A stretch of 64,000 bases of DNA from an uncultured bacterium (GTDB taxonomy: Bacteria; Bacteroidota; Ignavibacteria; Kapaibacteriales; UBA4661). The translations under genes were made by a program, and so were the position numbers. The stretch is from the NCBI GenBank assembly GCA_937899715.1, contig CALCNX010000075.1, positions 9,269 through 73,268 of the forward strand, read 5' to 3'. Under the pieces are notes generated by a model. It did not search any database. It was not told where the DNA came from and saw only the letters and a program-made list of their open reading frames with translations. Position 1 is the first letter of the stretch; each line of letters opens with the position of its first letter. Below, in pieces: positions 1,123-59,013 of the stretch.

Positions 1123-4100
1123 ATGAAACTGTTTGTTCTTCTTTTGGTTATCGCGCCGTGTCTTGCCCACGCGCAGCACGCGCCCGTGAACATTCCTCCT
1201 CCAAAGGCGGGAACGGTCTTGCGCAGCCTTGACCCCAAGAAGGACATTACGCATTACATCCACAGACTTTGGCAGGCGGAACAGGGGTTGCCGCAGAACT
1301 CTGCGCAGGCGCTCTGCCAGACGCGGGACGGATACTTGTGGATAGGCACGGAAGAAGGGTTAGTGCGCTTCGATGGTGCGCGGTTCACCGTTTTTGACAC
1401 CAAAAACACCCCCGGACTAAAAGCAAATGCTATTCAAGCACTGATAGAAGACCGCTCCGGTGCGCTCTGGATAGGCACAAGCGGTGGCGGCGTGAGCAGG
1501 TGGAAAGACGGGCATTGCACGGCATACACCACCGCAGAAGGCTTGTCGGGCGACTTTGTGAGTTCGCTCATGGAAGACCGCACGGGCGCTGAGTCCGGTG
1601 CGGGTGGTGGGGCAATCTGGGTTGGTACGCTGGGTGGGGGAGTGAGTTGTCTGAAGGATGGCAAGTTTACATCGCTGACCACCAAAAATGGTCTCTCGCA
1701 CAATCTTGTTTTTACGCTGCTCCAAGACCGCACGGGCGATGTTTGGATAGGCACAAATGGTGGTGGCGTGAACAGGCTGCATAACGGCGTTTTGACGGCA
1801 TACACCACGCAAAACGGTCTCTCGCACAATCTTGTTCGGGCGCTTCTGGAAGACCGCGACGGGGCGATTTGGATAGGGACGTTTGGCGGCGGGCTGAATC
1901 GGTTCAAAGACGGCAAGTTTACAGCGTTCACAACCAAAGATGGACTTTCGCACAATTTGGTTTGGTCGCTCCGAGAAGACCAGTTGGGAACGCTGTGGGT
2001 GGGTACATTCGGCGGCGGGCTGAATCGCTTACGCGATGGCGTTTTTTCTACGTTTTCCACTAAGAACGGGCTTTCGAGCGACCTCGTGCGTGCTATACTG
2101 GAAGACCGCGAAGGAACGCTCTGGGTGGGTACGGTGGGCGGGCTGAATTGCTTCAAAGACGGCATCTTTACAACGTTCTCCACGCATGATGGTTTGTCGC
2201 ATGATGTGGTCAGAACGCTTACGGAAAAAAGTGCGGGTGCGACAGCCAAAGGAAGCACGGAATTACATAAAGAAATGTGGATAGGCACGTTTGGCGGCGG
2301 CGTGAATCTTCTTCGGGACGGCAGGGCGCAGGCATGGACAGCCCGCACGGGGCTTTCGAGCGACATTATCTACACGCTCTTGGAAGACCGAAGCACAGGC
2401 GATAATGCGGGTGCGCTCTGGATAGGCACAAACGGTGGCGGTCTAGACCGACTTCAGAATGGCAACATTACCACTTACAACACGAAAAATGGTCTTGCAA
2501 ATGATGTTGTGTATGCTCTTGCGCAAGAATCTCGTTCGGGAGCGCTCTGGATAGCCACGAATGGGGGCGGTTTGAATCGTTTGGTATCAGGGAAATTTAC
2601 CAATTACACCACCAAAGACGGTTTGTCGAGTAATAACGTCCGAACGCTACTTCTGGAAAACCACAGCAAGGATGAGCAATCGGAAACGCTGTGGATAGGC
2701 ACAGTGGGCGGCGGGCTGAATCGCTTGAGTAATGGTAAATTCACCGTGTTCACGACTAAAGAAGGCTTGTCGCACAACAACGTGCGTTCGCTCTTCCAAG
2801 ACCGCGAGGGAACGTTGTGGATAGGCACGGTGGGCGGCGGGCTGAACAGATTCAAAGATGGCAAGTTTACGGCATTTACGACGGCAAATGGTTTGTTCGA
2901 CGACGTTGTGCATTGCATTGTGGAAGATGATTATGGCTATCTGTGGATGTCGTGCAACAAGGGTATTTTTCGTGTTCGCAAGGAGGACTTGAGCGCTTTT
3001 GCTGAGGGAAAATTGTCTAAATTTCCGTGTGAATCATTCGGTATTACCGATGGTATGCTGAGTGCGGAGTGCAATAGTGGTAATCCGGCGGGCTGGAAAG
3101 ACCGCCAAGGGCATTTGTGGTTCGCAACCATGGCGGGCGCTGTGACGGTCAATCCGGGCGCAGTGCTTTCACGCGCCAACAGTCTTGCACCGCCCGTCAT
3201 TATCGAAAGCATCATTGCCGATAGTGCTCGACTTGATGTTTCCACTCCGGCAGCAGCCCAGACGGGAGCAGAAAAGTTTGAATTTTATTATACCGCTACA
3301 AGCCTTTTTGCGCCGGAGCGTGTGAAATTCAAATACCTTTTGGAAGGCTACGACAAACAGTGGGTGGATGCTGGCACGAGGCGCACTGCATATTACACCA
3401 ATCTGCAACGCGGGCGAGACTACCGCTTTCGCGTCATCGCCTGCAACAGCGATGGCGTGTGGAACGAGACAGGTGCTATGGTGATGCTCTATCTTACGCC
3501 TCTTTTCTGGGAAACGTGGTGGTTCTTGACGCTTTGCGGGCTTGCACTTGTGTCATTGGGAGCAGGAGCATACCGTGTGCGGGTGCGGCACTTACACCAT
3601 CGGGCGGAGATGCTGGAGAAAATGGTGGAAGAGCGCACGGCGGAACTGCGCGAGAGCAATGAAGAAATCCAACAGCATCTGGAAGAAATAGACAAACAGG
3701 GGTACGAAATTGAGCTTTCTAATTTGGAATTGCGCGGAAAAAATCTGCAACTCGAAACGTTGCACAGAGAAAAAGATGAGTTTTTGGGTATCGTGGCGCA
3801 CGACTTGAAAAACCCTCTTGCAAGCATTACTCTTACGGCATCGCTGATTCGCACCTATCGCCAGCGTCATGGAGACGAATGGATAGACGAGCAGGCGAAT
3901 AAAATCGAGGCGATGACTGGGCGGATGACAAGCATCATTATGAATCTGCTGGATGTGAATGCACTGGAATCAGGGAACTATAATTTTCACATTGAGGATT
4001 TTGATATTGTGTCGGTGGTTGCTATGGTTGTGCGGGAATACCAAAGCAAATCTGCCACAAAAAAGATTAGCATTATTGCTGACTTGCCGCCGGAGAGCAG

Positions 4101-4455
4101 CGTGATAGCACACGCCGATAGCGCGATTGTACAAGGGATTTTGGATAACCTACTCTCGAACGCCGTTAAATACTCACCGCTTGGCAAACAAGTTTTTGTG
4201 CGTCTCGTCAGTGCCCACGCTGCAGTCCGCATAGAGGTTCAGGACGAAGGGCAAGGAATTTCGGAAGAAGACATGAAAAAATTATTTGGAAAATTTGCCC
4301 GCCTTTCGGCGCAACCAACAGGCGGCGAGCACAGTACGGGTCTGGGTTTAAGCATCGTCAAAAAAATGGTCGAAGCAATGCAAGGGCGTGTCTGGTGCGA
4401 ATCGGAAGCGGGCAAAGGAGCAACGTTTATCGTGGAATTGCCAAGAGTATTATAG
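1123..4455 (+). CDS. Sensor histidine kinase with a signal peptide, about 12 two-component-regulator propeller repeats (WIGT..GGL.RF), a Y_Y_Y domain, a TM helix, a coiled coil and the shared transmitter module. It has no REC or AraC domain.
   Basis: Repeats of the form LWIGTxGGGLNRxxxGKFTxxTTKDGLS, a Y_Y_Y region (FEFYYTATSL...KFKYLLEGYDKQWVD...RDYRFRVIACNSDGVWNE), a TM helix (WWFLTLCGLALVSLGAG), the H-box EFLGIVAHDLKNPL and the conserved C-terminus [52 protein letters not shown]. Confidence 0.9.
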   Translation: MKLFVLLLVIAPCLAHAQHAPVNIPPPKAGTVLRSLDPKKDITHYIHRLWQAEQGLPQNSAQALCQTRDGYLWIGTEEGLVRFDGARFTVFDTKNTPGLKANAIQALIEDRSGALWIGTSGGGVSRWKDGHCTAYTTAEGLSGDFVSSLMEDRTGAESGAGGGAIWVGTLGGGVSCLKDGKFTSLTTKNGLSHNLVFTLLQDRTGDVWIGTNGGGVNRLHNGVLTAYTTQNGLSHNLVRALLEDRDGAIWIGTFGGGLNRFKDGKFTAFTTKDGLSHNLVWSLREDQLGTLWVGTFGGGLNRLRDGVFSTFSTKNGLSSDLVRAILEDREGTLWVGTVGGLNCFKDGIFTTFSTHDGLSHDVVRTLTEKSAGATAKGSTELHKEMWIGTFGGGVNLLRDGRAQAWTARTGLSSDIIYTLLEDRSTGDNAGALWIGTNGGGLDRLQNGNITTYNTKNGLANDVVYALAQESRSGALWIATNGGGLNRLVSGKFTNYTTKDGLSSNNVRTLLLENHSKDEQSETLWIGTVGGGLNRLSNGKFTVFTTKEGLSHNNVRSLFQDREGTLWIGTVGGGLNRFKDGKFTAFTTANGLFDDVVHCIVEDDYGYLWMSCNKGIFRVRKEDLSAFAEGKLSKFPCESFGITDGMLSAECNSGNPAGWKDRQGHLWFATMAGAVTVNPGAVLSRANSLAPPVIIESIIADSARLDVSTPAAAQTGAEKFEFYYTATSLFAPERVKFKYLLEGYDKQWVDAGTRRTAYYTNLQRGRDYRFRVIACNSDGVWNETGAMVMLYLTPLFWETWWFLTLCGLALVSLGAGAYRVRVRHLHHRAEMLEKMVEERTAELRESNEEIQQHLEEIDKQGYEIELSNLELRGKNLQLETLHREKDEFLGIVAHDLKNPLASITLTASLIRTYRQRHGDEWIDEQANKIEAMTGRMTSIIMNLLDVNALESGNYNFHIEDFDIVSVVAMVVREYQSKSATKKISIIADLPPESSVIAHADSAIVQGILDNLLSNAVKYSPLGKQVFVRLVSAHAAVRIEVQDEGQGISEEDMKKLFGKFARLSAQPTGGEHSTGLGLSIVKKMVEAMQGRVWCESEAGKGATFIVELPRVL

Positions 4456-4777
4456 TTAGGGCTTTCGCAAATAGCAAGAACGAACATGATTTGGAGTGCG
4501 GAATTTTAATTCCGCAACCTTGGTACACGACAAAATTTCACAGATAGCTTGAGAACTGGCTTCGGTGGCACAGGCTGAGTGCCGCGCTCGCCTGTCTGTG
4601 TAGTCCTTTGAGCGCCGCGCTCAGAACACCGCTTCAAACCTCACAGACAAGTGAGCGCGGCGCTCAGTCTGTGCCACCGAGTACGATTTCTGTCGTGTAC
4701 TATGTTCCGCAACATATTTCTCACGTAACGGCGGAATTAAAATTCCGCACTCCTTATTTTTTGCGAAAGTCCTAATG
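4455..4777. repeat. Nested palindromic, MITE-like element of about 320 bp that begins at the stop codon of the upstream kinase gene. It has three concentric inverted repeats around a central palindrome.
   Basis: The outer inverted repeat is gttagggctttcgcaaa (4456-4472) paired with tttgcgaaagtcctaa (4762-4777). The middle one is ggagtgcggaattttaattccgc (4493-4515) paired with gcggaattaaaattccgcactcc (4731-4753). The inner one is an arm of about 40 bp, cttcggtggcacaggctgagtgccgcgctcgcctgtctgtg (4561-4601), paired with cacagacaagtgagcgcggcgctcagtctgtgccaccgag (4642-4681). The centre is the palindrome gagcgccgcgctc. A shorter relative lies at 47653..47720. Confidence 0.8.
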
Positions 4778-4949
4778 GTATCTCGTTGTTCACTACGTGT
4801 TGATGCCGTCCAGCAAGAATTTCTTCAATCTGAGAACGGTTGCATTTTTCGTGTGTGTCTATCAACATTTCATTGATATTTTACCTCGTGCCGTTGTATT
4901 TTACCGCATAACGCTATCCAAGGAAGTTTCATGCTAGTCGTTCTGCATT

Positions 4950-7900
4950 ATGCCATCCATTCGGTATTTCTTCCTCGCCCTTTTTTGCGGGTGCATCGCC
5001 GTCGCCCAAGAACGTCCGGTAAGCGTTCGCGGTTTAGACCCTTCAAAATCTATCGCCGAATACCGACATAGCATCTGGACGGCGGAAAACGGTCTTCCCC
5101 AAAACTCTGTTCAAACGCTTTGCCAAACGCGCAACGGCTACATCTGGATAGGCACACAAGAAGGTCTTGTGCGCTTCGACGGACTGAATTTTACTGTCTT
5201 CGACAAAACCAATGCTCCCGCTATAAGCGACAAATTTGTCAACGCGCTTCTGGAAACCTCTGATGGCACTCTGTGGGGAGGAGGCGCAAGAGGGTGCCTT
5301 TTTTCTCTGCAAAACGGAGTCTTTACGCGCCAAGCGATTGACCAACAAGCCGACGTTCGTGCATTGGCGGAATGGCACGGAAGAGTCTGGATTGGCACAA
5401 ATAGAGGGCTGTACTCTTGGCAGCGAAACGCGGCAACGTTCCGCCGTCTGAGTGTGATCGACGGTTTGCCGAGCGACGCTATTTTGTCGCTTGCCGCCGA
5501 CACGACGGCAGGTATTCTCTGGGTGGGAACGCAGGAAGGACTCTGCGCGGTGCGGATAGCTGCGTCGAATAATGACGGCGTGGGCGACACTTTTCGGACG
5601 CACTCTTTCCGTGTGGGGGATGGGTTGGTCAACGCAGCCATTCGTGCGCTGCTTTGCGATAGAGAGGGAACGCTCTGGATAGGCTCTAACGGGGGGCTAC
5701 AACGTGCGGTATGGAGCGACGGTGCGTTTCGCATAGTGGAAACCTATACTGAGCGCTCCGGTTTATCGGATAACGTTATCACTGCACTACACGAGGACAT
5801 GGAGCGAACCCTATGGATTGGTACGGCAACGCAAGGCTTAATGCGTTGCGCAGCTTCTCGCCGGATATTTGAACGCTTTACTATCGCCAACGGGCTTGGC
5901 AGCAACGATGTGGACGCAATTATACAGGACCGCGAGGGAATGCTCTGGATTGGCAGCGCCAATGGCGGCGGTCTCAATCGCCTCGCCAATGCTTCGTTTA
6001 TCGGCTACACAAAAAGCAACGGACTTGTTGGCGAGTTTGCTTGGACGTTGCTGCAAAGCCGCGACGGTTCAATGTATTTTAACACCAGTAATGCCGGTGT
6101 GGCACGCTTGAAGTCCGGCGCGTTTAGCTTTTTCACCAAAGAGCGCAACGGTTTACTTAGCAATGCGGGCAGAGCTATGATGGAAGACGCGGAGGGCGTT
6201 CTCTGGGTGGGTTCAGCCGAAAGCGGCGTTTCATGCGTCAAAAACGGGCGCGTTGTCAAAACGTACACAACGGCGACCGGACTGCTTGGCGATAATATCC
6301 GCGTTTTGTTTGAAGATAGTAAACGGCGCGTCTGGATTGGCTCGTTCAACAGCGGTCTCCAATGTTTAGAACATGGAAAATTTACATCGTGGACAGAAAA
6401 AAATGGCTTGTGTGGCAACAAACCGCGTACAGTGTTGGAGTCGTCCGACGGCACGATATGGATAGGCACATCCGGTGGTCTCAACGCTCTGCGCCCGGGA
6501 GCGTCGAAGTTGGAGCAGTACACCACTGCGCAGGGCTTAACTATGAATAGCGTTTTGTCGCTGCACGAAGACGAAAGCGGGGCACTCTGGCTTGGCATGA
6601 ACAGAGGCGGCTTGCATCGCTACAAAAACGGGAAATTTACCCATTGCAGCATAGAACACGGCTTGTTCGATGAAAATGTGTACAGCATTCTCGACGACGG
6701 TTTGGGCAATTTCTGGATGAGTTGCAATTTTGGCGTGTTTCGCGTGAGCAAAGCCGAACTGAACGCATTTATGGACGGCAGAGCGGCACATATCGTTTGC
6801 ACGGTCTTCGGGAAAGCCGACGGAATGCCGGTAGCCGAGTGCAACGGTGGGAGTACGCCGTCGGCATGGCGCTCCGGCGACGGGCGGTTATGGTTCGCTA
6901 ACGCAGTGGGCGCGGTTGTTGTGGATCCGCGTAAAATCTATAAAAATCCTGTTCCGCCGCAGGTGATTCTGGAGGAGATGCGTGTCGATGGGAAACCTTC
7001 CACATCGGCGACCATTCTCGCAACTGAAACCGAAAAACTTGAATTTCAATACACTGCCACGTGCCTTGCAGCCGCCGAGCGTGTGAAATTTAAGTATATG
7101 CTTGAAGGCTACGATAAGGATTGGGTGGAAGCCGGAAACCGCCGTACCGCCTATTACACGAATCTTCAACGAGGGCGCGACTACCGTTTCCGAGTTATCG
7201 CTTGCAACAACGACGGCGTTTGGAACGATACAGGGGCGTGGATCAATTTTTCAATTACGCCTTTTTGGTGGGAAATGTGGCAATTTTACGGACTCTGCGT
7301 GATGTTTGTCGGTACCACCGCGTATCAAGGGTTTCGCTGGCGGACACGGCGCTTGCGGGCAAGGGCGCGGGAATTAGAACGACTTGTCGCCAAACGCACG
7401 AAAGAAGTGCAAATGCAAGCTGCCGATATTGAAACGGCAAACACCGCTTTGCACGAAAAAAATATCATGTTGGAGCGACAGCAACAGATTTTAGAGGAAC
7501 AGGCACGGGAAATTGAAATTGCCAATTCAGCACTTCAGGAAAAAAATATCACGCTGGAAATGCTGAACCAAGAAAAGAATGAGTTTTTGGGCATAGCCGC
7601 ACATGATTTGAAAAACCCTCTTCAGCATATTATCATGGTTTCGGAAAAAATAGAGCGATATTATGACCGCATGAAGCGCGATGATATTGTTCACCAAGCC
7701 AAGACGATTGGTGCGGTGGCGCATCGTATGAACGAAATTATCGTGAATCTTCTTGATATTAACGCCATTGAGCGAGGCGGCGTGAGACTCGCGCCTAAAG
7801 AAGTTGACGTAGAGCCGCTGGTGCGCCGCGTAACCGAAGACTATGCGCACACGGCGCAAGAAAAAAACATAGCGATTTTTGTTGTCGGCATGGGAACAGA

Positions 7901-8255
7901 AACGCGCGCTTTTGCGGATGAAACTGCCGTCACGCAAGTTCTGGACAATCTCATCTCGAATGCCATCAAATATTCTCCGCATGGGAAAAGCGTGTTTGTG
8001 CGGGTGAAATCTGGCGTGGAAGCCATTCGTTTGGAAGTTGAGGATGAAGGTCCGGGTATTTCGCCAGAGGATATGCAAAAGCTGTTTGGCAAGTTTGCCC
8101 GCCTTTCTGCCCGTCCGACGGGCGGCGAACATAGCACAGGACTGGGTTTGAGTATTGTTAAAAAAATGGTTGAAGCGATGAACGGGCGCGTTTGGTGTGA
8201 GTCGGAGTTTGGCAAAGGCGCGACGTTTATTGTGGAGTTGCCAACTGTATCATAG
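4950..8255 (+). CDS. Sensor histidine kinase (signal peptide, propeller repeats, Y_Y_Y, TM, long coiled coil, shared transmitter module).
   Basis: Same architecture as 1123..4455. It has the Y_Y_Y motif FQYTATCLAAAERVKFKYMLEGYDKDWVEAGNRRTAYYTNLQRGRDYRFRVIACNNDGVWND, the H-box EFLGIAAHDLKNPL, and ends ...[20 protein letters not shown]. Confidence 0.9.
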   Translation: MPSIRYFFLALFCGCIAVAQERPVSVRGLDPSKSIAEYRHSIWTAENGLPQNSVQTLCQTRNGYIWIGTQEGLVRFDGLNFTVFDKTNAPAISDKFVNALLETSDGTLWGGGARGCLFSLQNGVFTRQAIDQQADVRALAEWHGRVWIGTNRGLYSWQRNAATFRRLSVIDGLPSDAILSLAADTTAGILWVGTQEGLCAVRIAASNNDGVGDTFRTHSFRVGDGLVNAAIRALLCDREGTLWIGSNGGLQRAVWSDGAFRIVETYTERSGLSDNVITALHEDMERTLWIGTATQGLMRCAASRRIFERFTIANGLGSNDVDAIIQDREGMLWIGSANGGGLNRLANASFIGYTKSNGLVGEFAWTLLQSRDGSMYFNTSNAGVARLKSGAFSFFTKERNGLLSNAGRAMMEDAEGVLWVGSAESGVSCVKNGRVVKTYTTATGLLGDNIRVLFEDSKRRVWIGSFNSGLQCLEHGKFTSWTEKNGLCGNKPRTVLESSDGTIWIGTSGGLNALRPGASKLEQYTTAQGLTMNSVLSLHEDESGALWLGMNRGGLHRYKNGKFTHCSIEHGLFDENVYSILDDGLGNFWMSCNFGVFRVSKAELNAFMDGRAAHIVCTVFGKADGMPVAECNGGSTPSAWRSGDGRLWFANAVGAVVVDPRKIYKNPVPPQVILEEMRVDGKPSTSATILATETEKLEFQYTATCLAAAERVKFKYMLEGYDKDWVEAGNRRTAYYTNLQRGRDYRFRVIACNNDGVWNDTGAWINFSITPFWWEMWQFYGLCVMFVGTTAYQGFRWRTRRLRARARELERLVAKRTKEVQMQAADIETANTALHEKNIMLERQQQILEEQAREIEIANSALQEKNITLEMLNQEKNEFLGIAAHDLKNPLQHIIMVSEKIERYYDRMKRDDIVHQAKTIGAVAHRMNEIIVNLLDINAIERGGVRLAPKEVDVEPLVRRVTEDYAHTAQEKNIAIFVVGMGTETRAFADETAVTQVLDNLISNAIKYSPHGKSVFVRVKSGVEAIRLEVEDEGPGISPEDMQKLFGKFARLSARPTGGEHSTGLGLSIVKKMVEAMNGRVWCESEFGKGATFIVELPTVS

Positions 8256-8441
8256 TGGGCTATTGCTTTGCATATTGAGTTTTACAGTTCGGGCTGTCCT
8301 GCTTGCCTTCTTCGGTGCGGCTGCCCAATATGCGTCTGATGACCAACCGACAGCCGATAGTGTACTTTCACTCGCTAGCCGCCAGCCCACAGGCATAAAA
8401 CTTTTTCAACAAACACCACTATATAAAGCACTATATTACGT

Positions 8442-10532: not shown

Positions 10533-10539
10533 AACAATA

Positions 10540-11922: not shown

Positions 11923-12044
11923 AAACGCTTTGATATTGTTTTTCCTGCTTTTGTTGTATCTTTGTTCCTTGTTTGTGTCATTTGCCAAAATGAGTGTTCG
12001 CGCCTTATCACTTCACTTTGTCCCGTTTTTCTTGAGAAACAGCT

Positions 12045-33412: not shown

Positions 33413-33419
33413 TGCTGCT

Positions 33420-47857: not shown

Positions 47858-48871
47858 ATGGAACGACGAGATGTATTAAAGGGGCTGGGAACGCTTGGAC
47901 TTGGGGCAGTTCTTGGCGCAACAACGAATGAGGAAGCCTCTGCCGCCACACCACCGCCAATGGCAGGCTGCGTTCTGATTCCTCAAGAGACCGAAGGACC
48001 ATATCCGCTCGACCTGAGTCGTAATGCCGCGATGTTCCGTCAGAACATCACCGAGGGAAAAACCGGGCTTCCGCTCAATCTCAGGCTTACGATTCAAAAT
48101 GTAAGCAATAATTGTGCTCCCATTGCGAATGCCCGTGTGGACATCTGGCAATGCGACAAAGACGGCGTATATTCCGGCTATAACCAACCGGGCGCAAACA
48201 CCGTCGGGCAGACGTTTATGCGCGGTATCCAGATGACTGACAGCGCGGGACAGGTGAACTTTGTGACGGTGTATCCGGGCTGGTATAGCGGTCGTATCAC
48301 CCACATTCATTTCCAAGTGTTCGTTACATCAGTTCTTCGCGCCACATCGCAGATTGCTTTTCCCGATGCTATCAATAATGCTGTCTATCAAACGCCGCTC
48401 TATGTGGCAAAAGGGCAAAACCGTTCGGTGGCGAATAATGCTGCCGATATGGTCTTTAGCGATGGTTTCGAGTCACAGTTGGCAATGCTGACGGCGAACA
48501 CAACCACAGGTGGTTATGATGCGGCGCTGACGGTCGGTATTCAAGCCCCAACAACGGGGGTTATGGATTTGGAGCCGGAAACGGGCGGACAGTTCCTGTT
48601 GCAACAAAACTATCCGAATCCTTTTAGCACCACAACGACCTTTGTTTTTCAGCTGATGCAAGCAGCAAGCGTTGAATTTTCGCTCTACGACCTCACGGGC
48701 AGAAAACTTGCTACGCTTGTGGATAAGACGCTTTCGAGCGGTGAACATCGCATTGAATGGGACAAAACTATCGGCGGAATGGCGCTTGCTTCCGGCAATT
48801 ATGTCTTTGAACTTGTGACCAAAAGCGCTGCCGGGCAATTCCGTCAAGCAAAAGTCTTGACCGTTCGATAA
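47858..48871 (+). CDS. Intradiol ring-cleavage dioxygenase-like protein with a twin-arginine (Tat) signal peptide and a T9SS C-terminal sorting domain.
   Basis: Tat motif MERRDVLKGLGTLGLGAVLGA. Dioxygenase_C-like core (ARVDIWQCDKDGVYSGY...TDSAGQVNFVTVYPGWYSGRITHIHFQVF). C-terminus ...LQQNYPNPFSTTTTFVFQL...SGNYVFELVTKSAAGQFRQAKVLTVR, which fits the T9SS CTD pattern. Confidence 0.75.
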   Translation: MERRDVLKGLGTLGLGAVLGATTNEEASAATPPPMAGCVLIPQETEGPYPLDLSRNAAMFRQNITEGKTGLPLNLRLTIQNVSNNCAPIANARVDIWQCDKDGVYSGYNQPGANTVGQTFMRGIQMTDSAGQVNFVTVYPGWYSGRITHIHFQVFVTSVLRATSQIAFPDAINNAVYQTPLYVAKGQNRSVANNAADMVFSDGFESQLAMLTANTTTGGYDAALTVGIQAPTTGVMDLEPETGGQFLLQQNYPNPFSTTTTFVFQLMQAASVEFSLYDLTGRKLATLVDKTLSSGEHRIEWDKTIGGMALASGNYVFELVTKSAAGQFRQAKVLTVR

Positions 48872-50392: not shown

Positions 50393-50660
50393 AACGATTC
50401 TCCAAAAAATGGTAGATAAAAAAACTTTTTGTGTTGTTGCTGTTGATGGTGGTGTTTTTCCTGTGGCGTTTCCCCGCAGGTAACTGATACAAAAATGCAC
50501 AATCGGTACTCGTCAAACATCTAGCCGATGGTCAGTATCTTCTATGCCCAAAAGTCATGGTCAAAAATTTGTCAGTACACAGAATCAAATAGAACTTTTT
50601 TCGTATTCCTCCGTACACGGGGAAGAACGGCTCAACTTCCATCACCGTCGTCTTCCCGCT

Positions 50661-53600
50661 ATGTGCTTTCTCTACATCTTGCCCTGCACGAAGACAATCA
50701 CCTACCGAAGCGCAATTTTCGGTATAGCTTCCCTGTACCTTCTATGCTCTTTTCAAGCCGTTCCCGCTTCTGCCCGTCATCAGAATACCACTACAAAAGC
50801 CGCCTCGCAACGGCATCTCGCACGGCATCCCGTTTCCGCCTCGTCACGCCCCGAATTGTGGTTTGAACATCTTAGCCTTGCCGAAGGTCTTTCTCAAAGC
50901 AGCGTTTATGCGATATTGCAGGACAAGCACGGCTTCCTGTGGATTGGCACGGAAGATGGTTTGAATCGCTACGATGGTTATCGCTTCACGCATTACCGTC
51001 ACGACCCAACGAATCCGCGCTCGTTGTCGGCAAATCTTGTGCGGGTCTTGTATGAAGACCGCGACGGTACATTATGGGTTGGGACGGAAAATGGTGGTCT
51101 GAATGCCTACGACCGCAAAACAGAAAGTTTCACTCGCTACCAATCTGCTTTCAACGATGATAGAAATGCCCCTCGGAAAACTGATGCCGAGAGCGAAGGG
51201 CTGGGCAGTAATTTCCTGCGAGGCATTTGTGAAGACGCGGAGGGAACGCTGTGGATAGCCACTACAAACGGGCTGAACACATTTAATAAGCGTACCGGCA
51301 AATGGGGACGAATGTGCTATAGTCCGAACAATCCTGCGGGTGCAGGAAGTCTGAGCCACAACCACCTAAACTCGCTGTTGCTTGACCGCGATGGTATGAT
51401 ATGGGTGGGAACATGGGGCAAAGGAGTAAATCGAATTAATCCCAAGACAGGAGCAATTACACGCTTTGACAATAAATCACAGACCAACGCACTCATCAAT
51501 GATTTTATCACTGCGCTTTTTCAAGACAGTGATGGTGATATCTGGGTAGGTACTGCCGATGGTGTCAGTCTTTTGAATCTTGCATCGGGAAAGAGTACTC
51601 ATTTTGCCAACAGCCCTGAAAAACCGAGTGTTTTAGGCGGGAATATGATTCGTTCTTTTTGGCAAGACGGAGGCGGAACATTCTGGATTGCTTCCGAGCA
51701 AGGCGGTGTAACGCTTTTGGACAAAAAGACGGGACATACGGAAAATTATCGTCACGAACCGACCAATGCAGCGAGCCTGAGCAATGATAATATTCGGTGC
51801 ATTTTTCGTGATAAGCAAGGTGCACTCTGGCTTGGCGCAATGGGTGGCGGGCTTAATAAATTTGACCCTTTCGCACGGAAGTTTGTATCCTATCGCCAAG
51901 AAACCAACAACCCATTCAGCCTCAACAATAACGTTGTTCGGGCAATTCTGGAAGATGAGTGCGGCACGGTGTGGGTGGGAACGGAAGGCGGCGGACTAAG
52001 CAAATTCGACCCTTTCACGAAGAAATTTACAGCATACCGCCATCAGCCCGGCAATGAGCGGAGCATCAGTCACGATATTGTGCGCGGCATTGTGAATGAT
52101 AAAAAACGGGGCGTTCTCTGGGTAGCAACAGCCGGTGGCGGGCTGAATCGTTTCGACCCTAAACGTGGTACATTTACAGCGTATCGAGCGAACTCGAACA
52201 AAGCGTATTCAATTTCCAGTGACGTTGTCCGACCGCTCTTGCTCAATGATGATGGCACACTCTGGGTTGGGACTGAGGGCGGGCTGAATCACTTCGACCC
52301 CGCAAACGAGCGCTTTACAGCATACCATTCTGACCCCAATAATGACCGTAGCCTCAGCTTTGAGTCGGTCTTGACGCTGTACAAAGACCGTTCGGGAACG
52401 CTGTGGGTGGGGACGTTACAGGGGTTGAATAAGTTCGATCCCGCAAGTGGCACATTTACGCAGTTTACGCACAACATGAACGATGCACACGCCCTCCAAA
52501 GTGGTAATATCCGCTCCATGATTGAGGACAACAAAGGGCGCTTCTGGGTGGGAACGTGGGGTGGGGGCTTACATCTTTTTGACCGCACAACGGGTCGTTG
52601 TGAAGGTTTTCGGGAAAAGGATGGACTGCCAAACGATGCGGTGTATGGGATTTTGCAAGATAGCGCAGGCAACCTTTGGCTCACAACCAATAATGGTCTT
52701 GCCCGCTTTAATCCTGATGAGCGGACGTTCCGTACCTACGATGCCGATGATGGTTTGCAAAGTAATGAGTTCAATAGTGGAGCATATCATGCGGGCGAAA
52801 GTGGGCGCTTCTATGTGGGCGGTGTGAACGGACTGAGTATGTTTACGCCGGAGCGTATCGCCGACAATACCACGCCGCCTCCGGTAGTAATAACGGGGTT
52901 CAAAAAATTCAACAAACCCGTGCAGCTTTGGCAAGACCTCACTGCTGAGCCTGAAATTGCGATTCCTTACGATGACAATTTCTTTACTATTGAGTTCGCT
53001 GCACTCAATTTTACCAGTGCTAGAAAAAATCACTATCTCTACAAATTAGATGGCTTCGACAAACGCTGGATAGATGCAGGAACAAGCCGTGAAGCTGCTT
53101 ATACGAACCTTGACCCTGGAGTATATACATTTCGCATAAAAGCCTGCAACAATGACGGTCACTGGAACGAGCGCGGCGCACGATTGCACATCAGAATTTT
53201 GCCGCCGTGGTGGATGACAATTTGGTTTCGGGCGGGTATCGTATTGGGGTTTGTCGGCACAGGCGGAGCGTGGTTCTGGGCACGGTGGCGACGTGTGCAT
53301 TATCAAAAGCGAGAACTGGAAAGGCTTGTGGGAGAACGTACCGAGCAGTTGCAGGAAAGTAACATTGAGCTGTCGCAAGCAAATGAGGAAATTCAACAGC
53401 ATATCCAAACCGTAAGCGAGCAGGCGTGGGAAATTGCGACGATGAACACGCAATTAAACGCCCGCAATCAAGAATTGGAGCGGCTGAACACCGAAAAGAA
53501 CGAGTTTTTGGGTATCGCCGCGCACGACCTCAAAAATCCACTTACGAGTATCGTTTTGCTTGCCGAAATGATTCAGTTTCAGAACGAAACATTAGACAAC

Positions 53601-54191
53601 TCACAACTGATGGAGAAGGTGTCCAAAATTGAGCTAACCGCTATGCGGATGCGCGATATTATTGCCGATGTGCTGGATGTGAATGCCTTAGAATCGGGCG
53701 CACTCACACTGTATCCGGCGGAATTTGATGCGGTTTTTCTGGCAAAGGATATTCTGGAAGAATACCAAGACCGTGCCGCTGAGAAAGGCATTACACTTCA
53801 CTTAGAAGCCCCCCAAGACCGTGAAGTGCTCCTCTATGCAGACTTCACGAAAACACATGAAGTGCTGGAAAATATCGTCTCTAATGCCGTGAAATACTCG
53901 CCGCATGGAAAAAATGTTACTGTGAGGATACATGATGATTTGAGTACATCATTTGTGAAAATTGAAGTGCAGGATGAAGGTCCCGGCATTTCGGATGAGG
54001 ATATGAAGCGGCTTTTTGGTAAATTCGTTCGTCTTTCGGCACAGCCCACAGGCGGCGAGCATTCGACGGGTTTGGGGTTAAGCATCGTCAAAAAAATGGT
54101 CGAAGCGATGCAGGGGCACGTGTGGTGTGAGTCGGAGCTTGGTGCGGGCGCATCGTTCTTCGTGGAATTGCCGAAAGCAGAACAAGCATAA
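50661..54191 (+). CDS. Sensor histidine kinase (signal peptide, about 14 propeller repeats, Y_Y_Y, TM, coiled coil, shared transmitter module). The ORF is open from 50544.
   Basis: Propeller repeats (LWIGTEDGLNRYDG; LWVGTENGGLNAYD ...), a Y_Y_Y motif (FTIEFAALNFTSARKNHYLYKLDGFDKRWIDAGTSREAAYTNLDPGVYTFRIKACNNDGHWNE), a TM helix, the H-box EFLGIAAHDLKNPL and the C-terminus GKFVRLSAQPTGGEHSTGLGLSIVKKMVEAMQGHVWCESELGAGASFFVELP. Confidence 0.85.
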   Translation: MCFLYILPCTKTITYRSAIFGIASLYLLCSFQAVPASARHQNTTTKAASQRHLARHPVSASSRPELWFEHLSLAEGLSQSSVYAILQDKHGFLWIGTEDGLNRYDGYRFTHYRHDPTNPRSLSANLVRVLYEDRDGTLWVGTENGGLNAYDRKTESFTRYQSAFNDDRNAPRKTDAESEGLGSNFLRGICEDAEGTLWIATTNGLNTFNKRTGKWGRMCYSPNNPAGAGSLSHNHLNSLLLDRDGMIWVGTWGKGVNRINPKTGAITRFDNKSQTNALINDFITALFQDSDGDIWVGTADGVSLLNLASGKSTHFANSPEKPSVLGGNMIRSFWQDGGGTFWIASEQGGVTLLDKKTGHTENYRHEPTNAASLSNDNIRCIFRDKQGALWLGAMGGGLNKFDPFARKFVSYRQETNNPFSLNNNVVRAILEDECGTVWVGTEGGGLSKFDPFTKKFTAYRHQPGNERSISHDIVRGIVNDKKRGVLWVATAGGGLNRFDPKRGTFTAYRANSNKAYSISSDVVRPLLLNDDGTLWVGTEGGLNHFDPANERFTAYHSDPNNDRSLSFESVLTLYKDRSGTLWVGTLQGLNKFDPASGTFTQFTHNMNDAHALQSGNIRSMIEDNKGRFWVGTWGGGLHLFDRTTGRCEGFREKDGLPNDAVYGILQDSAGNLWLTTNNGLARFNPDERTFRTYDADDGLQSNEFNSGAYHAGESGRFYVGGVNGLSMFTPERIADNTTPPPVVITGFKKFNKPVQLWQDLTAEPEIAIPYDDNFFTIEFAALNFTSARKNHYLYKLDGFDKRWIDAGTSREAAYTNLDPGVYTFRIKACNNDGHWNERGARLHIRILPPWWMTIWFRAGIVLGFVGTGGAWFWARWRRVHYQKRELERLVGERTEQLQESNIELSQANEEIQQHIQTVSEQAWEIATMNTQLNARNQELERLNTEKNEFLGIAAHDLKNPLTSIVLLAEMIQFQNETLDNSQLMEKVSKIELTAMRMRDIIADVLDVNALESGALTLYPAEFDAVFLAKDILEEYQDRAAEKGITLHLEAPQDREVLLYADFTKTHEVLENIVSNAVKYSPHGKNVTVRIHDDLSTSFVKIEVQDEGPGISDEDMKRLFGKFVRLSAQPTGGEHSTGLGLSIVKKMVEAMQGHVWCESELGAGASFFVELPKAEQA

Positions 54192-54229: not shown

Positions 54230-56791
54230 TTGCTTTTTTGCACTCTTCCATTCTCACCAATCATTATGCACATTCCTTCCATGTCGCTGCTTTCCGCCGT
54301 ATATGCCGCATATTTGCTTGATTGCATAACAGGTGTGCTGTTGCTGTGGAAATATTTTGAGGGCAGTCGTCACGTTCAGGATGGGAAGTCGCAGCAGGCG
54401 ATGACATCGGTGAATTTGCCTGTAAGCCTCATTTTCAGCCGAGCCATCACGATGACTGTGCTCACGGTGTGTCTTGTGCAAATCGTCGCTCTGACTCCTG
54501 TGCAGACGTGGGCATGTATTGGTTTTGCAGCATTCTCGCTCGCGCTTTCAGTCTTTGCTCTTGTAAAAAAAATACTCGCCCCGCGATCCGCCCATAAACC
54601 TGCCCTTGATTCCGGCAAGACTTCACTCTCCTACACCTTTCCCATTAACCCGAAATTTGAAGCCTTGTGGTCGGCGAATCCTCAATATTACGAGGCTGGT
54701 ACTGTTCGCTTGCGTAAGGTGGAACTCCCACACTGGCGTTTTGAATCGCCGGAATTTACGGATGTGATTTTTGTGCTGGAAGGTATTATCATGGTCGAAA
54801 CTGCTATTGGCTCACCAAACGGTGCTGCTACACGCCATGCGGTTGATTTGGTGTGGCAAATTGCCGAAGAAATGAACATTCGCCATACCAGAGCCGTTCT
54901 TTTTTCTGATGCCTATAATGTCCGTAAGTCATCGTTTGAAGCGCGAAAAATTGCAGCTCAATTCTATGGCGAAGCTGCACGTATCTGGGATTGCTATTTG
55001 TTTCTCAATCCCGCCGTGCGAGTGTCTTTCCAGCTCTCGAAGCCCTTTGCGCCCAGCGCCTTTCGCTCCATTCGCATTGCCGACAGCTTCCATGACGGCA
55101 TTCGTTCTATCCTCTCGCATTACTCGCGTGCAGTAGTGCCGGAAAATAATACAATGCCGGAAAATAATGCCGGACAGCCGCGTGAATACTCGTTTCCCAC
55201 CAATCCCTATTTTGAGGAGCGTTGGAAGTATTCGTTGGAGTACCTTGAGCACGAAGGGGTAAAATTGCGTAAGGTGCAACCTGCGGAATGGCATTATCAA
55301 GGAATTGGTGGTGAACAAGCAGTGTTCATGCTCGAAGGCGCGATGCTTGTGGTCAAGATTCAGTCTCAAAGACTTGATAACGCTGCCATACAGGCAATGA
55401 TGGCGCACGTGGAAGAGATTCTTCTCAGGAACGGGAATGAGACAATACCGATGGCATTGACGCTTGATTTTTCCGAAGTGCCGATAGATTCATCGTTGCT
55501 CTGTGCTGATGCTGAACCGATGCTGCGCGATACAATGCTTCTTAGTATATGTTGTCTGACTTCACCTCTTATACGTGAAAAAGTGCAAACTTCGCGTATT
55601 GTATTTCCGGCACGTTTGCCTGATGGTTCTGCGGAGGAAAAAGTAGTGTGGTTCGGCGGTGTGCAGGACGAGGCATTGGACGCAATGCTTGTGCATTTTA
55701 TCGCCTCTGATGACAACGAGATTGTGGAGGCGAGTGAAGAAACAAAGCAGGTGGGCAGCCGTAGAGCAGATTTTCACGAGCACCGCATAGAACAGATTTA
55801 TACTTTACTGGCTCGTATAGCGGATAGCGAGCCGGAGACGTTGGAACCGCCTCGCTTGCCAAGTGATGATTTATACGCTGATGTTTTCAAAGCAATGGAG
55901 GTCGTCTATGAGGACAAGCGCCGACAGATGCAGGAGATTATGGAGCAAAAATACCTTTTGGAAAAGCAAGCCTCTCAAATTCAAGAAGTGAATACCCAAC
56001 TTTCGTTTCATAACACCCAGCTTGATGAGCAGAATCAGCAATTAGCTGCGCTGAACACCGAGAAGAACGAGTTGATGAGTATTGTAGCACACGACCTCAA
56101 GAACCCTATTGGTGCTGTGCGCTCTATGGCAGAACTCATCGCGGCGGGGCACACACTGAAGCCGCAGGTAGTTGCTGAAAATATCATCAATACTGCAAAC
56201 CGTATGCTGGGGCTTGTTGGTAATCTTCTTGATCTCAACCGTTTGGAATCCGGTGCGAAGATATATCATTGTGTTGAAATAGATATTGCGCCTTTTATTG
56301 ATACGACTATTTGGCAGTATCGCCATGCGGCAGAGAAAAAAAATATTACCTTCCATTACAGCGCCGAAGCACCTCACACACTTGCGATTGCCGATGAACA
56401 AGCTATCTTGCAAATAGTGGATAATCTTATTTCCAACGCCGTGAAATACTCGCCGCAGGGAAAAAATGTTTTTGTTAGAATCAGGAATGACGAATTAACA
56501 ACGGCAAAAGTAGACTCACGTGCACAGTCGTCAAGCCGCAAAGGGACTATTCGTATCGAAGTTCAAGACGAGGGCGAAGGTATTTCGCGTGAGGATATGA
56601 AGCGGCTTTTTGGTAAATTCGCTCGTCTTTCCGCACAGCCGACCGGTGGCGAACACTCTACGGGATTGGGCTTGAGTATCGTCAAAAAAATGGTCGAAGC
56701 GATGGAAGGTCGTGTGTGGTGTGAGTCGGAGCCGGGTAAGGGAGCGATGTTTGTTGTTGAACTGCCTAGTCCCTTTCATTTCCACGAGTGA
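54230..56791 (+). CDS. Membrane histidine kinase whose cytoplasmic sensor region contains an internally duplicated ~150-aa domain of unknown type, followed by the shared transmitter module.
   Basis: N-terminal TM helices (LLSAVYAAYLLDCITGVLLLW; AITMTVLTVCLVQIVALT; WACIGFAAFSLALSVFALV). Repeat 1 reads SYTFPINPKFEALWSANPQYYEAGTVRLRKVELPHWRFESP...VIFVLEGIIMVE. Repeat 2 reads EYSFPTNPYFEERWKYSLEYLEHEGVKLRKVQPAEWHYQGIGGEQAVFMLEGAMLVV. The H-box is ELMSIVAHDLKNPI and the C-terminus is [52 protein letters not shown]. Confidence 0.8.
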   Translation: MLFCTLPFSPIIMHIPSMSLLSAVYAAYLLDCITGVLLLWKYFEGSRHVQDGKSQQAMTSVNLPVSLIFSRAITMTVLTVCLVQIVALTPVQTWACIGFAAFSLALSVFALVKKILAPRSAHKPALDSGKTSLSYTFPINPKFEALWSANPQYYEAGTVRLRKVELPHWRFESPEFTDVIFVLEGIIMVETAIGSPNGAATRHAVDLVWQIAEEMNIRHTRAVLFSDAYNVRKSSFEARKIAAQFYGEAARIWDCYLFLNPAVRVSFQLSKPFAPSAFRSIRIADSFHDGIRSILSHYSRAVVPENNTMPENNAGQPREYSFPTNPYFEERWKYSLEYLEHEGVKLRKVQPAEWHYQGIGGEQAVFMLEGAMLVVKIQSQRLDNAAIQAMMAHVEEILLRNGNETIPMALTLDFSEVPIDSSLLCADAEPMLRDTMLLSICCLTSPLIREKVQTSRIVFPARLPDGSAEEKVVWFGGVQDEALDAMLVHFIASDDNEIVEASEETKQVGSRRADFHEHRIEQIYTLLARIADSEPETLEPPRLPSDDLYADVFKAMEVVYEDKRRQMQEIMEQKYLLEKQASQIQEVNTQLSFHNTQLDEQNQQLAALNTEKNELMSIVAHDLKNPIGAVRSMAELIAAGHTLKPQVVAENIINTANRMLGLVGNLLDLNRLESGAKIYHCVEIDIAPFIDTTIWQYRHAAEKKNITFHYSAEAPHTLAIADEQAILQIVDNLISNAVKYSPQGKNVFVRIRNDELTTAKVDSRAQSSSRKGTIRIEVQDEGEGISREDMKRLFGKFARLSAQPTGGEHSTGLGLSIVKKMVEAMEGRVWCESEPGKGAMFVVELPSPFHFHE

Positions 56792-56838: not shown

Positions 56839-59013
56839 GTGAGAAATATTGCATGGATGGCAAACGCATTGTTCAGGGCGGGAATGGCGCTTGTCATTCT
56901 TGTCTTGATGCTGTATTGTTTTCTTACTCGTGCTGTTGCTGGCGATGATGCTCTTGTGCGTCGTCTGGGAGAAGCACGCGAGCAAAAGAACGATACAGCG
57001 CTTGTGCTGGCACTTGCCGACCAAGCATATTCGCGCTGGCTGACCAGTCCCGATGTTGGCATACAGGAGGCGCAAGAAGCTATCGGCATTGCGGAGCGTG
57101 TTGCTTTCCCACGTGGCAAGGCAATCGCGCTTGTTTCCTTAGGGTGGTGCCATTATGTGCGCTCCGAATATGCCGAGGCGATGCGGGCGTTTTTGCAAGG
57201 GCAAGCGCTTGCCGAGCAGACGGGCGACAATGCCACGCTGGGTACGATTTTGCAATACAAAGGCAATCTTTTTCGGCGTGTGTACAAAGACCCCGAACGC
57301 TCTCACCGTGAGCATTTGCGCTCACTTGCACTCATGCCGCCCTTTGCCGATAGCACCAATAGAATGTTGCTCTTGCAGGATATTGGCATAGACGAGCGTT
57401 TGATGAAGCATCCCACTGAAGCGCTGGAGTATTTGAATACAACTGTTACATTTTTCCGTCAGCACAATGATACGGCAAATCTCACGGTGTCATTAGGTTA
57501 TGTGGGAGAGTGCTATGCACTTCGGGGGGAGCATGAAAAAGCCCTTGAATACTACGGGCAGGCAATTTCTTTCGCCAAGTCATTGGGGCTTCGTCGTGCG
57601 CTGGCATTTGATTATGGGCGCTCTGCCAGTAGCCACAATGCGCTTGGGCAGCCGGAAAAGGCTATTGCTGAAGCGTTGAAGGCGGTTCCGCTTGCAAAAG
57701 CTATCGGTACGCAGGATATGATGCCGGAGGTCTATACGGCGCTCACCGAAGGATACCGAGCGCTTCGTAAGTTCGAGGAGGCTTCCACCTATCAAGTGTT
57801 GCTTGTGGAAATACAGGATATGCTCTATGCCGACAAAATTCGTAATACCTTGCTTTTGCAGCAGGCGGACTTCGATGCGCAAAAAATGGATACCCGCTTG
57901 AAAGCACTGGATAACGACAAGCAACTTCAACGGCGCATTGCCTTTGGTCTGGCGGTGCTGGTCGTACTCGTGGCAGTGGCGGGGATGTTTGCTTGGCGCT
58001 ATGCACGACGAGAACACCGAGCGTTTATGCTGGTCGAGGAACGTAATCGCCATATCTCGCAGCAGGCTCAAGAACTTGAAGCCCTGAACACACAGCTTCT
58101 GGTGGCAAATGAAGAAGTGCAACGCCAGTTGCAGATTCAGTCCGAGCAGGCACAACAGCTTGAAATTTCACAAACAGAAACCCGTCAGACAAACGAGCAT
58201 TTAGAGCACATCAATGAAGAATTGCTTCGTTCTAATGCGGAGAGAGCCAAGCAGCAATCGGCATTGGAAGCATTGAACCGTGAACTTTCATACAAAAATC
58301 AGGCGCTCTCAGATGCCGAGCGCTTTCGGTTGAATATGCTAGGTATTGTTTCGCATGATTTGAAAAATCCTATCAGTACCATTATCGGTTTGTCCAACGT
58401 TTTGCTTGATGATAATTCAACGCACGACCCCAGAACGCAAGATATGCTGCGCCATATCAACGAGTCCGGTGAGCGTATGGGTGCGCTTGTACGGGATTTG
58501 CTGGATACGGCGGCACGAGGCGTTGGCAAAATGAACGTGCATCTGCAGCCGACCGAACTCAAAGATATTGTTGCGGGCGTGTTGGCGCACCACATTCATT
58601 CTGCCGAGCGCAAAGAGCAAACGCTTATTTTTAGTCCACACGAGGAAGTATGGGTGGTGGGAGATGTGCAGCGATTATTCCAAGTGTTCGATAATTTGAT
58701 TGGCAATGCAATAAAATACTCCCCGATTGCAGGGACAATCTGGATAACAGTTGCTCACCACGACGGAAAAGCCCGATTTACAGTCAAAGACGAAGGTGTC
58801 GGGTTCACGGCAGAAGACAAAGTGCGGGCATTCGGCTTTTTTCAAAAGCTCTCTGCCAAGCCGACCGGCGATGAGCCGTCAAGCGGCATCGGCTTGGCAA
58901 TCGTGCGGCAGATTGTGGATATGCACAACGGCGCGGTCTGGATAGAAAGCGAAGCGGGACAAGGTGCAATGATGATTGTGGAGTTGCCGCTTCTCCAAAA
59001 AGAGCATAGATAA
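56839..59013 (+). CDS. TPR-repeat sensor histidine kinase; the most divergent member of the shared-module family.
   Basis: N-terminal TM helix, TPR-like repeats, a second TM helix (IAFGLAVLVVLVAVAGMFAW), a coiled coil, the H-box NMLGIVSHDLKNPI and the C-terminus FGFFQKLSAKPTGDEPSSGIGLAIVRQIVDMHNGAVWIESEAGQGAMMIVELP. Confidence 0.8.
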   Translation: MRNIAWMANALFRAGMALVILVLMLYCFLTRAVAGDDALVRRLGEAREQKNDTALVLALADQAYSRWLTSPDVGIQEAQEAIGIAERVAFPRGKAIALVSLGWCHYVRSEYAEAMRAFLQGQALAEQTGDNATLGTILQYKGNLFRRVYKDPERSHREHLRSLALMPPFADSTNRMLLLQDIGIDERLMKHPTEALEYLNTTVTFFRQHNDTANLTVSLGYVGECYALRGEHEKALEYYGQAISFAKSLGLRRALAFDYGRSASSHNALGQPEKAIAEALKAVPLAKAIGTQDMMPEVYTALTEGYRALRKFEEASTYQVLLVEIQDMLYADKIRNTLLLQQADFDAQKMDTRLKALDNDKQLQRRIAFGLAVLVVLVAVAGMFAWRYARREHRAFMLVEERNRHISQQAQELEALNTQLLVANEEVQRQLQIQSEQAQQLEISQTETRQTNEHLEHINEELLRSNAERAKQQSALEALNRELSYKNQALSDAERFRLNMLGIVSHDLKNPISTIIGLSNVLLDDNSTHDPRTQDMLRHINESGERMGALVRDLLDTAARGVGKMNVHLQPTELKDIVAGVLAHHIHSAERKEQTLIFSPHEEVWVVGDVQRLFQVFDNLIGNAIKYSPIAGTIWITVAHHDGKARFTVKDEGVGFTAEDKVRAFGFFQKLSAKPTGDEPSSGIGLAIVRQIVDMHNGAVWIESEAGQGAMMIVELPLLQKEHR

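Follow-up and report, generated by a model that had tools for sequence, protein, structure and literature searches.

A long co-oriented array of old, paralogous sensor kinases in a Kapaibacteriaceae-like member of the Bacteroidota

The DNA analysed here (the window, 64,000 nucleotides of contig CALCNX010000075.1, assembly GCA_937899715.1, positions 9,269 to 73,268) carries a long array of paralogous sensor histidine kinases. About 33 credible genes were recognized in the 64 kb, 26 of them on the + strand, and 19 encode kinases, which is far above chance. Seventeen of the kinases belong to a single family and lie head-to-tail on the + strand between 1.1 and 59 kb, at roughly one gene per 3 kb and with several intergenic gaps of 38–60 nt. 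The family comprises 15 intact copies, one frameshifted copy and one divergent copy, together with an 80-nt 3′ remnant of an eighteenth; an earlier reading of the letters alone (the sequence-only reading) had the number, coordinates and strand of these kinases right. Pfam searches placed HisKA and HATPase_c domains at the C-termini of the listed kinase open reading frames (ORFs). The proteins of the window were scored with a local hidden Markov model (HMM) built from the last 72 residues of the kinase copies, giving 140–154 bits for 16 copies, 87 bits for the divergent copy (56839–59013) and 42–47 bits for two kinases of another type (55–996 and 13223–16618; H-box HEINNP). Metagenome assemblies of two other samples matched window positions 4462–15121 at 99.98% and 9954–17137 at 99.92% identity. 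As two independent assemblies thus reproduce part of the array at more than 99.9% identity, an assembly artefact was ruled out as the source of the repeats; the array is real and well beyond chance. The nearest genomes among GTDB species representatives were metagenome-assembled genomes (MAGs) labelled Candidatus Kapaibacterium sp. or Ignavibacteria bacterium. Kapaibacterium is placed in the Kapaibacteriaceae (Bacteroidota) and, judged by these nearest relatives, the host is a Kapaibacteriaceae-like member of the Bacteroidota; some of the relatives are labelled Ignavibacteria in their records.

At least eight sensor architectures were found among the 17 copies, linked to the dimerization and histidine phosphotransfer (DHp) domain by a long coiled-coil helix. 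For comparison, 63 related loci from Kapaibacterium- or Ignavibacteria-labelled MAGs, about 1 Mb in all, were examined (locus numbers with the prefix L; identities to orthologues refer to proteins). Three family members carry a Reg_prop beta-propeller and a Y_Y_Y domain: kinase 1 (1123–4455, 1110 aa, 153.5 bits; HisKA and HATPase_c; orthologue L028 4623–7967, 86% over the full length), kinase 2 (4950–8255, 1101 aa, 151 bits; L017 1480–4920, 90%) and kinase 15 (50544–54191, 1215 aa, 148.2 bits; L032 7193–10900, 91%). Five have TPR sensors, which in the first four are combined with a transmembrane (TM) segment: kinase 3 (8442–10532, 151.5 bits; likely true start at 8514 according to the L001 gene call), kinase 6 (17996–20170, 149.9 bits; Pfam matches to HATPase_c and TPR), kinase 9 (24755–26890, 141 bits; L055 379–2607, 72%), kinase 13 (41785–43971, 141.9 bits; L065 5012–7375, 80%) and the divergent relative (56839–59013, 87.3 bits; L032 13522–15735, 91%), whose C-terminus is 54% identical to those of the core copies. 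The sequence-only reading had regarded all N-termini as unrelated to one another, which does not hold within these two groups: the three Reg_prop and Y_Y_Y sensors are mutually 29–40% identical, with 40% for the adjacent kinases 1 and 2, and the alignable pairs of TPR sensors share 22–29%.

Further copies are predicted by hydropathy to have membrane-embedded sensors, with four TM segments in kinase 4 (10480–11922, 153.2 bits; likely true start at 10540 by the L001 gene call), six in the polytopic kinase 7 (20262–21695, 143.3 bits; L017 11568–12749, 85%), and an extracytoplasmic region of about 210 aa followed by about seven TM segments in kinase 10 (26947–29295, 150 bits). Neither kinase 4 nor kinase 10 had a Pfam match in the sensor, and self-alignment revealed no internal duplication in either; residues 95–781 of kinase 10 have 33–35% identical relatives in L007, L008 and L016. 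Kinase 14 (45253–47616, 146.9 bits; L032 3216–5588, 77%) combines 7TMR-DISMED2 and 7TMR-DISM_7TM domains. Kinase 5 (12045–13223, 392 aa, 149.1 bits; L017 6932–8167, 74%) has an N-terminal REC domain fused to the family transmitter, kinase 8 (21882–24707, 941 aa, 143.5 bits) a cytoplasmic multi-GAF sensor, and kinase 11 (29433–32339, 968 aa, 140.4 bits) four PAS domains. The sensor of the membrane-anchored kinase 16 (54230–56791; L032 10904–13501, 83%) had no Pfam match and contains a duplicated domain that had been noticed from the letters and proved genuine, as residues 107–189 aligned to residues 293–374 with a Smith–Waterman score of 121 compared to 30.6 ± 4.8 for shuffled sequences. A search of 5.8 billion proteins found only six homologues of this sensor, each a kinase of the same clade, and the AlphaFold model of the duplicated domain built with these six (mean predicted local distance difference test score 50.9) was too poor for fold assignment.

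The remaining two traces of the family are damaged. Kinase 12 (33420–34560, 152.8 bits) is a PAS-kinase split over the ORFs 33420–33914 and 33901–34560, and tblastn with its intact orthologue (L055 3689–4876) located the frame switch just before the H-box (...EANRQVNELI / MAVHDLKNP); the 1-nt frameshift may reflect either a pseudogene or a sequencing error. The remnant at 37230–37309 (+ strand) corresponds to the last ~25 codons of a family kinase (38.8 bits, profile positions 47–71; DNA repeat family D3, 79% to the reference) and is flanked by a − strand gene with a type IX secretion system (T9SS) tail and a chemoreceptor gene. The truncated eighteenth copy reported earlier is the trace at 37230–37309; the ORF 33901–34560, taken as truncated, is the 3′ part of the frameshifted PAS-kinase.

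The family copies meet the definition of class I HisKA kinases, with HisKA detected by Pfam in 16 of the 17 copies, HATPase_c in all (E-values 1e-24 to 1e-32) and a conserved phospho-accepting histidine. This histidine, the N box (N..SNA.K[YF]S), the G1 box (D.G.G) and the G2 box (G[LI]GL) are intact in 17/17 copies, and the F box reads LFGKF. Among solved structures, HK853 of T. maritima is closest (2c2a, 3dge, 4jas; E-values 5e-27 to 1e-26 over query residues 9–238), followed by SrrB, WalK, VicK and DivL. The best NCBIfam matches were PnpS, PhoR and WalK, with zero models reaching the cutoff, and the copies are thus not equivalogs of any named kinase. By domains and motifs, the proteins are ordinary, HK853-like class I (HisKA and HATPase_c) kinases of an unnamed subfamily. 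The H-box follows H-D-L-K/R-N in 16 copies, and an H-D-x-x-N motif is linked to phosphatase activity in HisKA kinases. Kinase 6 deviates with HGLKSQIFG instead of HDLKNP, and thereby lacks the acidic residue and the asparagine of the D..N phosphatase motif. The same variant is found in its orthologues (L041 1795–3930 and L033 1673–3808) and, because it is kept between genomes, it is a maintained functional variant rather than a product of decay.

Conservation is distributed very unevenly along the transmitter. In pairwise comparisons of the 16 core copies, mean identity was 0.31 in the coiled-coil linker (0.20 to the two other-type kinases), 0.38 in the DHp domain (0.17) and 0.36 in the N-terminal half of the catalytic and ATP-binding (CA) domain (0.17), compared to 0.81 (range 0.69–0.92) in the last 72 columns, which contain the G1 box, F box, ATP lid, G2 box and terminal hairpin (0.43 to the other-type kinases). 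The sequence-only reading had described one shared, near-identical DHp/CA module. This description fits the last ~72 residues, which are 81% identical, but not the DHp domain and the N-terminal half of CA, which are merely 36–38% identical, so that a single shared transmitter module is not supported. In 166 unique transmitters, conservation reaches at least 80–90% in the majority of the last 56 columns. The near-invariant F-box/ATP-lid/G2 segment of the subfamily reads LFGKFARLSARPTGGEHSTGLGLSIVKKMVEAM.G.VWCESE, with RLSARPTGGEHST as the invariant lid segment. Kinases of about 500 aa inside four of the related arrays (L011 18652–20175, L014 15040–16491, L010 2126–3631 and L007 1930–3441), a type not present in the window, have a different F box and lid (PF.QQD.S..R..GGLGLGLAI), while over their last ~23 residues they match the family consensus completely or almost so; these proteins may be mosaics or a sister subfamily.

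Homologues of the transmitter number in the thousands, the best being 50–58% identical, and many are REC-kinases of about 380–420 aa from Kapaibacteriota, Ignavibacteria, Bacteroidota and Thiotrichaceae-like Gammaproteobacteria. Named homologues from these groups have a closely similar C-terminal segment, and the invariant segment is therefore a trait of a widespread subfamily and not of the array. The array itself also recurs in relatives. The 63 related loci contain about 180 family copies, and co-oriented arrays were found with eight copies in a 23-kb locus (L011), seven in L027 and six each in L014, L022, L023 and L024, as well as about 15 family kinases on one 56-kb contig of MAG Prado071.

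For 10 of the 17 window copies, full-length orthologues including the sensor, 72–91% identical, were found in the MAGs Clear-D13 and 336R. Clear-D13 is collinear with the window over 42–64 kb at 79–89% nucleotide identity. The syntenic place in 336R is without kinases 10 and 11 (26947–29295 and 29433–32339), and the order around the response regulator differs. Similarity between transmitters did not vary with their distance along the array (Spearman 0.035, p = 0.61). Together, the orthologues in other species and this flat relation indicate that the duplications are much older than those species and that no trace of stepwise duplication is left. In line with this, Nei–Gojobori estimates gave proportions of synonymous differences (pS) of 0.75–0.78 in all three transmitter regions, which equals saturation, and of non-synonymous differences (pN) of 0.46, 0.45 and 0.15, the last value being that of the C-terminal 72 columns. 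Since synonymous sites are saturated and non-synonymous change is low, the C-terminus is held by purifying selection on the protein. The earlier statements that the family is old and constrained at the protein level, and that it is not a cluster of recent tandem duplicates, are both upheld by these data.

Partner recognition was approached through the positions His+7, +8, +11 and +12, which we take to set the partners as in EnvZ, PhoQ and HK853. Fifteen distinct codes at these positions were found in the 17 window copies, and 103 in 176 unique family kinases. Among paralogues the specificity positions are only 15–16% identical, compared to 56% at other helix-1 positions, whereas between orthologues they are 82.5% identical; kinases 13 and 15, for example, share the codes ANTV and TSLL, respectively, with their orthologues. 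Diversity among paralogues combined with retention in orthologues argues against a common output, and is the pattern expected of paralogue-specific, insulated partner interfaces. The proposal of the sequence-only reading, in which numerous inputs converge on a small set of common outputs, is thus not borne out.

Response regulators are scarce. As had been reported, the window encodes only two, a REC and GerE protein of the NarL/LuxR type (16691–17413, + strand), which is the sole regulator gene inside the array, and a REC and LytTR protein (62670–63593, − strand), in addition to the REC domain fused to kinase 5. In the related loci, 12 non-kinase REC proteins face about 170 family kinases (a kinase-to-regulator ratio of 14:1). 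Fusions of REC to a kinase numbered 15, and seven of the ten regulators tested were of the REC and GerE type. In L016, L024 and L031, orthologues of the array-embedded regulator (55–56% identity) are encoded within arrays, each immediately after a kinase gene. The upstream neighbour of this regulator varies between genomes, and the regulator is missing at the syntenic place in 336R.

Taken together, the array is in our view probably an ancient island that has been maintained and whose orphan sensor kinases are each specialised. Each kinase dimer would autophosphorylate on the histidine in response to its own signal, and would act on a cognate response regulator of its own as kinase and, through HDxxN, as phosphatase. 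The genes of most such regulators would lie outside the island, and the array-embedded NarL/LuxR-type protein is a likely partner of at least one member. The island would have been born of old duplications with swapping of sensor domains, and later reshaped as whole genes were gained or lost and the conserved 3′ ends occasionally recombined, as suggested by one ~190-nt conversion tract (see below) and the one 3′ remnant. Its persistence could be due to selection for co-location or co-transcription, or to new copies being preferentially born and retained inside arrays.

Several points weigh against this interpretation. It leaves the rigid ATP-lid/C-terminal segment unexplained. The cognate regulators were not found in the window or in the fragments of related genomes, and that they are encoded elsewhere is an assumption. 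The absence of a correlation between similarity and distance means that there is no direct trace of tandem duplication in situ, which leaves room for assembly of the cluster by other routes. Co-transcription is suggested only by the short gaps, because promoter and terminator scans (sigma-70 type and the Bacteroidetes-type TAnnTTTG) were uninformative, with counts equal to those in shuffled sequences or motifs absent. Finally, the His+7/+8/+11/+12 scheme is carried over from EnvZ, PhoQ and HK853 and may not hold for this subfamily.

Among the alternatives, a signal funnel survives best, although we consider it unlikely. Here, the 15–17 kinases would converge on one or a few outputs, such as the regulator 16691–17413 or the receiver of kinase 5 (12045–13223), and the island would serve to integrate many inputs in the way of the Bacillus and Vibrio networks compared below. 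The scarcity of regulator genes in and near the arrays is in its favour, as is the position of one REC and GerE orthogroup (55–76% identity) directly downstream of array kinases in four genomes. Five window copies further share the helix-1 pattern NPI[STG][AS]V/I.[GS][FLM]. The CA half with the ATP lid is nearly invariant, and in DivL/HK853 models the lid can contribute to the surface on which the regulator docks (PMC4211667). However, no part of helix 1 is less conserved among paralogues than the specificity positions, which are nonetheless kept between orthologues, the neighbour of the regulator differs between genomes, and the regulator is absent from its syntenic place in 336R. Family expansion, moreover, normally leaves kinases as orphans, and this need not imply shared partners (PMC1630713). 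A partial funnel is possible but not favoured.

Regulator docking by the lid is one possible reason for its rigidity. In a further reading, which we hold to be quite improbable, the island is itself the selected functional unit and no accident of history. Kapaibacteriaceae-like bacteria would then keep at least a dozen sensors of the subfamily together and in part co-transcribed, and the near-invariant ATP-lid/C-terminal face of all of them would serve as the docking site of a single factor acting in trans, be it a scaffold, a regulator used in common or a further kinase, for example the pair of REC-kinase and HEINNP-kinase described below. The variable DHp positions would tune the output of each copy. 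If true, the island would represent a novel mode of integrating at least 15 inputs, and the long persistence of ancient paralogues in tandem would be accounted for.

Compared to the interpretation as an island of specialised kinases, it is very improbable that concerted evolution, that is gene conversion or unequal crossing-over among tandem copies instead of selection on the protein, keeps the C-termini alike. One clear tract of ~190 nt does exist, between kinase 2 (8045–8240, at the 3′ end of the gene) and kinase 3 (10295–10490), with ~92% nucleotide identity, 47/60 identical third positions compared to ~30% just upstream, and a pS of 0.30; it is also present in the independent assemblies. 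The remnant at 37230–37309 likewise shows that recombination breakpoints fall in the C-terminal segment. The tract is, however, the sole such case among 120 pairs, as the other 119 have a segment pS of 0.53–1.01 (mean 0.75), the same saturation as in the variable regions. Nucleotide identity over the module is just 63–73%, and a very similar protein segment is kept in unrelated phyla, from which arrays of this kind are not known. The Nei–Gojobori estimates thus rule out that the common C-terminus is owed to gene conversion, except in this one tract. An overlapping RNA or DNA element behind the conservation was likewise ruled out, as no Rfam family or tRNA was found in the window and synonymous sites are free to vary.

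There is a comparably small chance that nothing more than ordinary HATPase_c conservation in a kinase-rich genome is being seen. Histidine kinases in general are most conserved in the G1, F and G2 boxes and in the terminal hairpin, identity between the family and the other-subfamily kinases of the window already amounts to 43% in the segment, and HK853 has the same pattern (...GLGL.I.K.IVE..GG.IW.ESE.GKG..F.V..P). The likeness within the family nevertheless exceeds this background, as had been claimed, with 81% identity compared to the 43%. HMM scores in the related loci follow a bimodal distribution in which the range of 60–120 bits is sparsely filled, and the two other-type kinases, compared to each other as a control, have a flatter gradient (0.47–0.49 versus 0.64). 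When a 78-column profile of the segment was searched against 1.84 billion cluster representatives, 751,426 matched at E ≤ 1e-3 and 47,978 at E ≤ 1e-10, but just 621 at E ≤ 1e-30. A survey of 207 genomes, furthermore, found expanded kinase paralogues to be scattered and not clustered, and the expansion events to be mostly recent (PMC1630713). Lastly, a recent lineage-specific amplification, i.e. a young burst in one genome with rapid sensor swapping, would fit the co-oriented head-to-tail layout, the similar sensors of kinases 1 and 2 and the fact that copies 8–10 are mutual best transmitter matches, but it has hardly any probability left in view of the saturated synonymous sites, the low identity of paralogues outside the C-terminus, the ten full-length orthologues in conserved order in other species, which at 79–89% nucleotide identity are unlikely to be contaminating contigs of the same population, and the lack of similarity decay along the array.

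Expansion of kinase families with domain shuffling, yielding orphan kinases, has been described for e.g. Desulfovibrio (Alm, Huang & Arkin 2006, PMC1630713). The window resembles such expansions in having one type of kinase domain with shuffled sensors, both membrane-bound and soluble forms, and almost no adjacent regulators. It differs in that 17 copies lie head-to-tail on one strand over 58 kb, in that arrays of 6–15 copies recur in relatives, and in that the duplications are old, as seen from saturated synonymous sites and conserved orthologues. What is already known is thus kinase expansion by duplication and sensor swapping, and what differs here is that the expansion is tandem, old and conserved across species. 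The literature yielded nothing specific about Kapabacteria signalling or about kinase genes in tandem arrays. With HK853 and class I HisKA kinases of the WalK, PhoR and PnpS type, the family shares homology over the full transmitter, the D..N of the H-box and the N, G1, F and G2 boxes; it stands apart by its unusually invariant F-box/ATP-lid/G2 segment.

In many-to-one networks, such as Bacillus KinA–E acting on Spo0F or Vibrio LuxN, LuxQ and CqsS acting on LuxU, unlike inputs are likewise placed on related transmitters with few regulators nearby. The helix-1 recognition positions of the window kinases are, in contrast, highly diversified, and no shared receiver or histidine phosphotransfer protein was identified. 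Bacteroides-type hybrid two-component systems unite a Reg_prop and Y_Y_Y sensor, a kinase, a receiver and an AraC output in one protein. The same type of periplasmic sensor is found in three family members and in the kinase 13223–16618, but the window proteins end at HATPase_c, with no REC, HTH or AraC domain following it in any copy.

The unusual feature is thus the genomic organisation and its persistence, as the proteins themselves are ordinary. The long co-oriented kinase arrays are old, conserved from species to species and widespread in an entire uncultured lineage, which raises the question of why ancient paralogous sensors stay together; co-transcription, a recombination nursery and a shared partner are all possible. 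The family also offers a clean natural case in which presumed partner residues diversify between paralogues and are fixed within orthogroups, beside a near-unchanging catalytic half, and could serve work on the insulation of signalling pathways and on the prediction of partners by covariation. For annotation, it illustrates that such repeats in MAGs can be real and not assembly artefacts.

Kinase 5 is the first gene of a two-kinase pair (12045–16618). Its partner (13223–16618, + strand, 47 bits), the start of which overlaps the stop of the REC-kinase gene, is not a family member but an NtrB/AtoS-like kinase of another subfamily with a Reg_prop and Y_Y_Y sensor, the H-box HEINNP and best NCBIfam matches to T2SS_HK, EspC and AtoS, all under the cutoff. 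The same arrangement, a family REC-kinase of ~390–420 aa beside an other-subfamily kinase of ~1130–1330 aa with abutting or overlapping genes, was found in at least six other MAGs or assemblies (L003/L061, L005, L017, L048, L056, L057 and L062), with the H-box HEINNP, or HEVNNP in L005. The conservation of the pair suggests a kinase-to-kinase relay. Adjacent kinase pairs, in which a kinase with a variable sensor is followed by a conserved kinase with a CheY-type domain, are known from Nostoc (PMC1630713). The pair described here is similarly conserved in the window and in relatives, but differs in that its receiver is N-terminal instead of C-terminal to the kinase and in that it is embedded in a much longer array.

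A second gene pair consists of an alpha/beta hydrolase (32609–33412, + strand, assigned by Pfam) and the split PAS-kinase 12, the hydrolase gene ending 7 nt upstream. The pair (32609–34560) is kept in the sister MAG 336R (L055 2815–4876), where the kinase is intact and the hydrolase (L055 2815–3633) is 72% identical. It recalls the RsbQ hydrolase and the PAS-domain protein RsbP of Bacillus.

A few minor features of the intergenic and neighbouring regions were also recorded. The 494-nt gap between kinases 1 and 2 contains an inverted repeat (4562–4680) with 39-nt arms that are 90% complementary and 41 nt apart, without an Rfam match. An apparent gap of 582 nt between the array-embedded regulator and kinase 6 is filled by a small ORF on the − strand (17467–17898, 143 aa) with a lipoprotein-type signal (…LGGLSAC) and no Pfam match. 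At 47828–48871, a dioxygenase-like protein with a T9SS sorting tail is encoded, which is absent from the otherwise collinear Clear-D13 contig (L032) and therefore marks an indel inside the island. Finally, positions 39378–41534 encode a 718-aa fusion of 2,4-diacetylphloroglucinol hydrolase (PhlG-like) and FAD_binding_4 oxidase domains, which is found beside a chemoreceptor gene in Clear-D13 and 336R as well.

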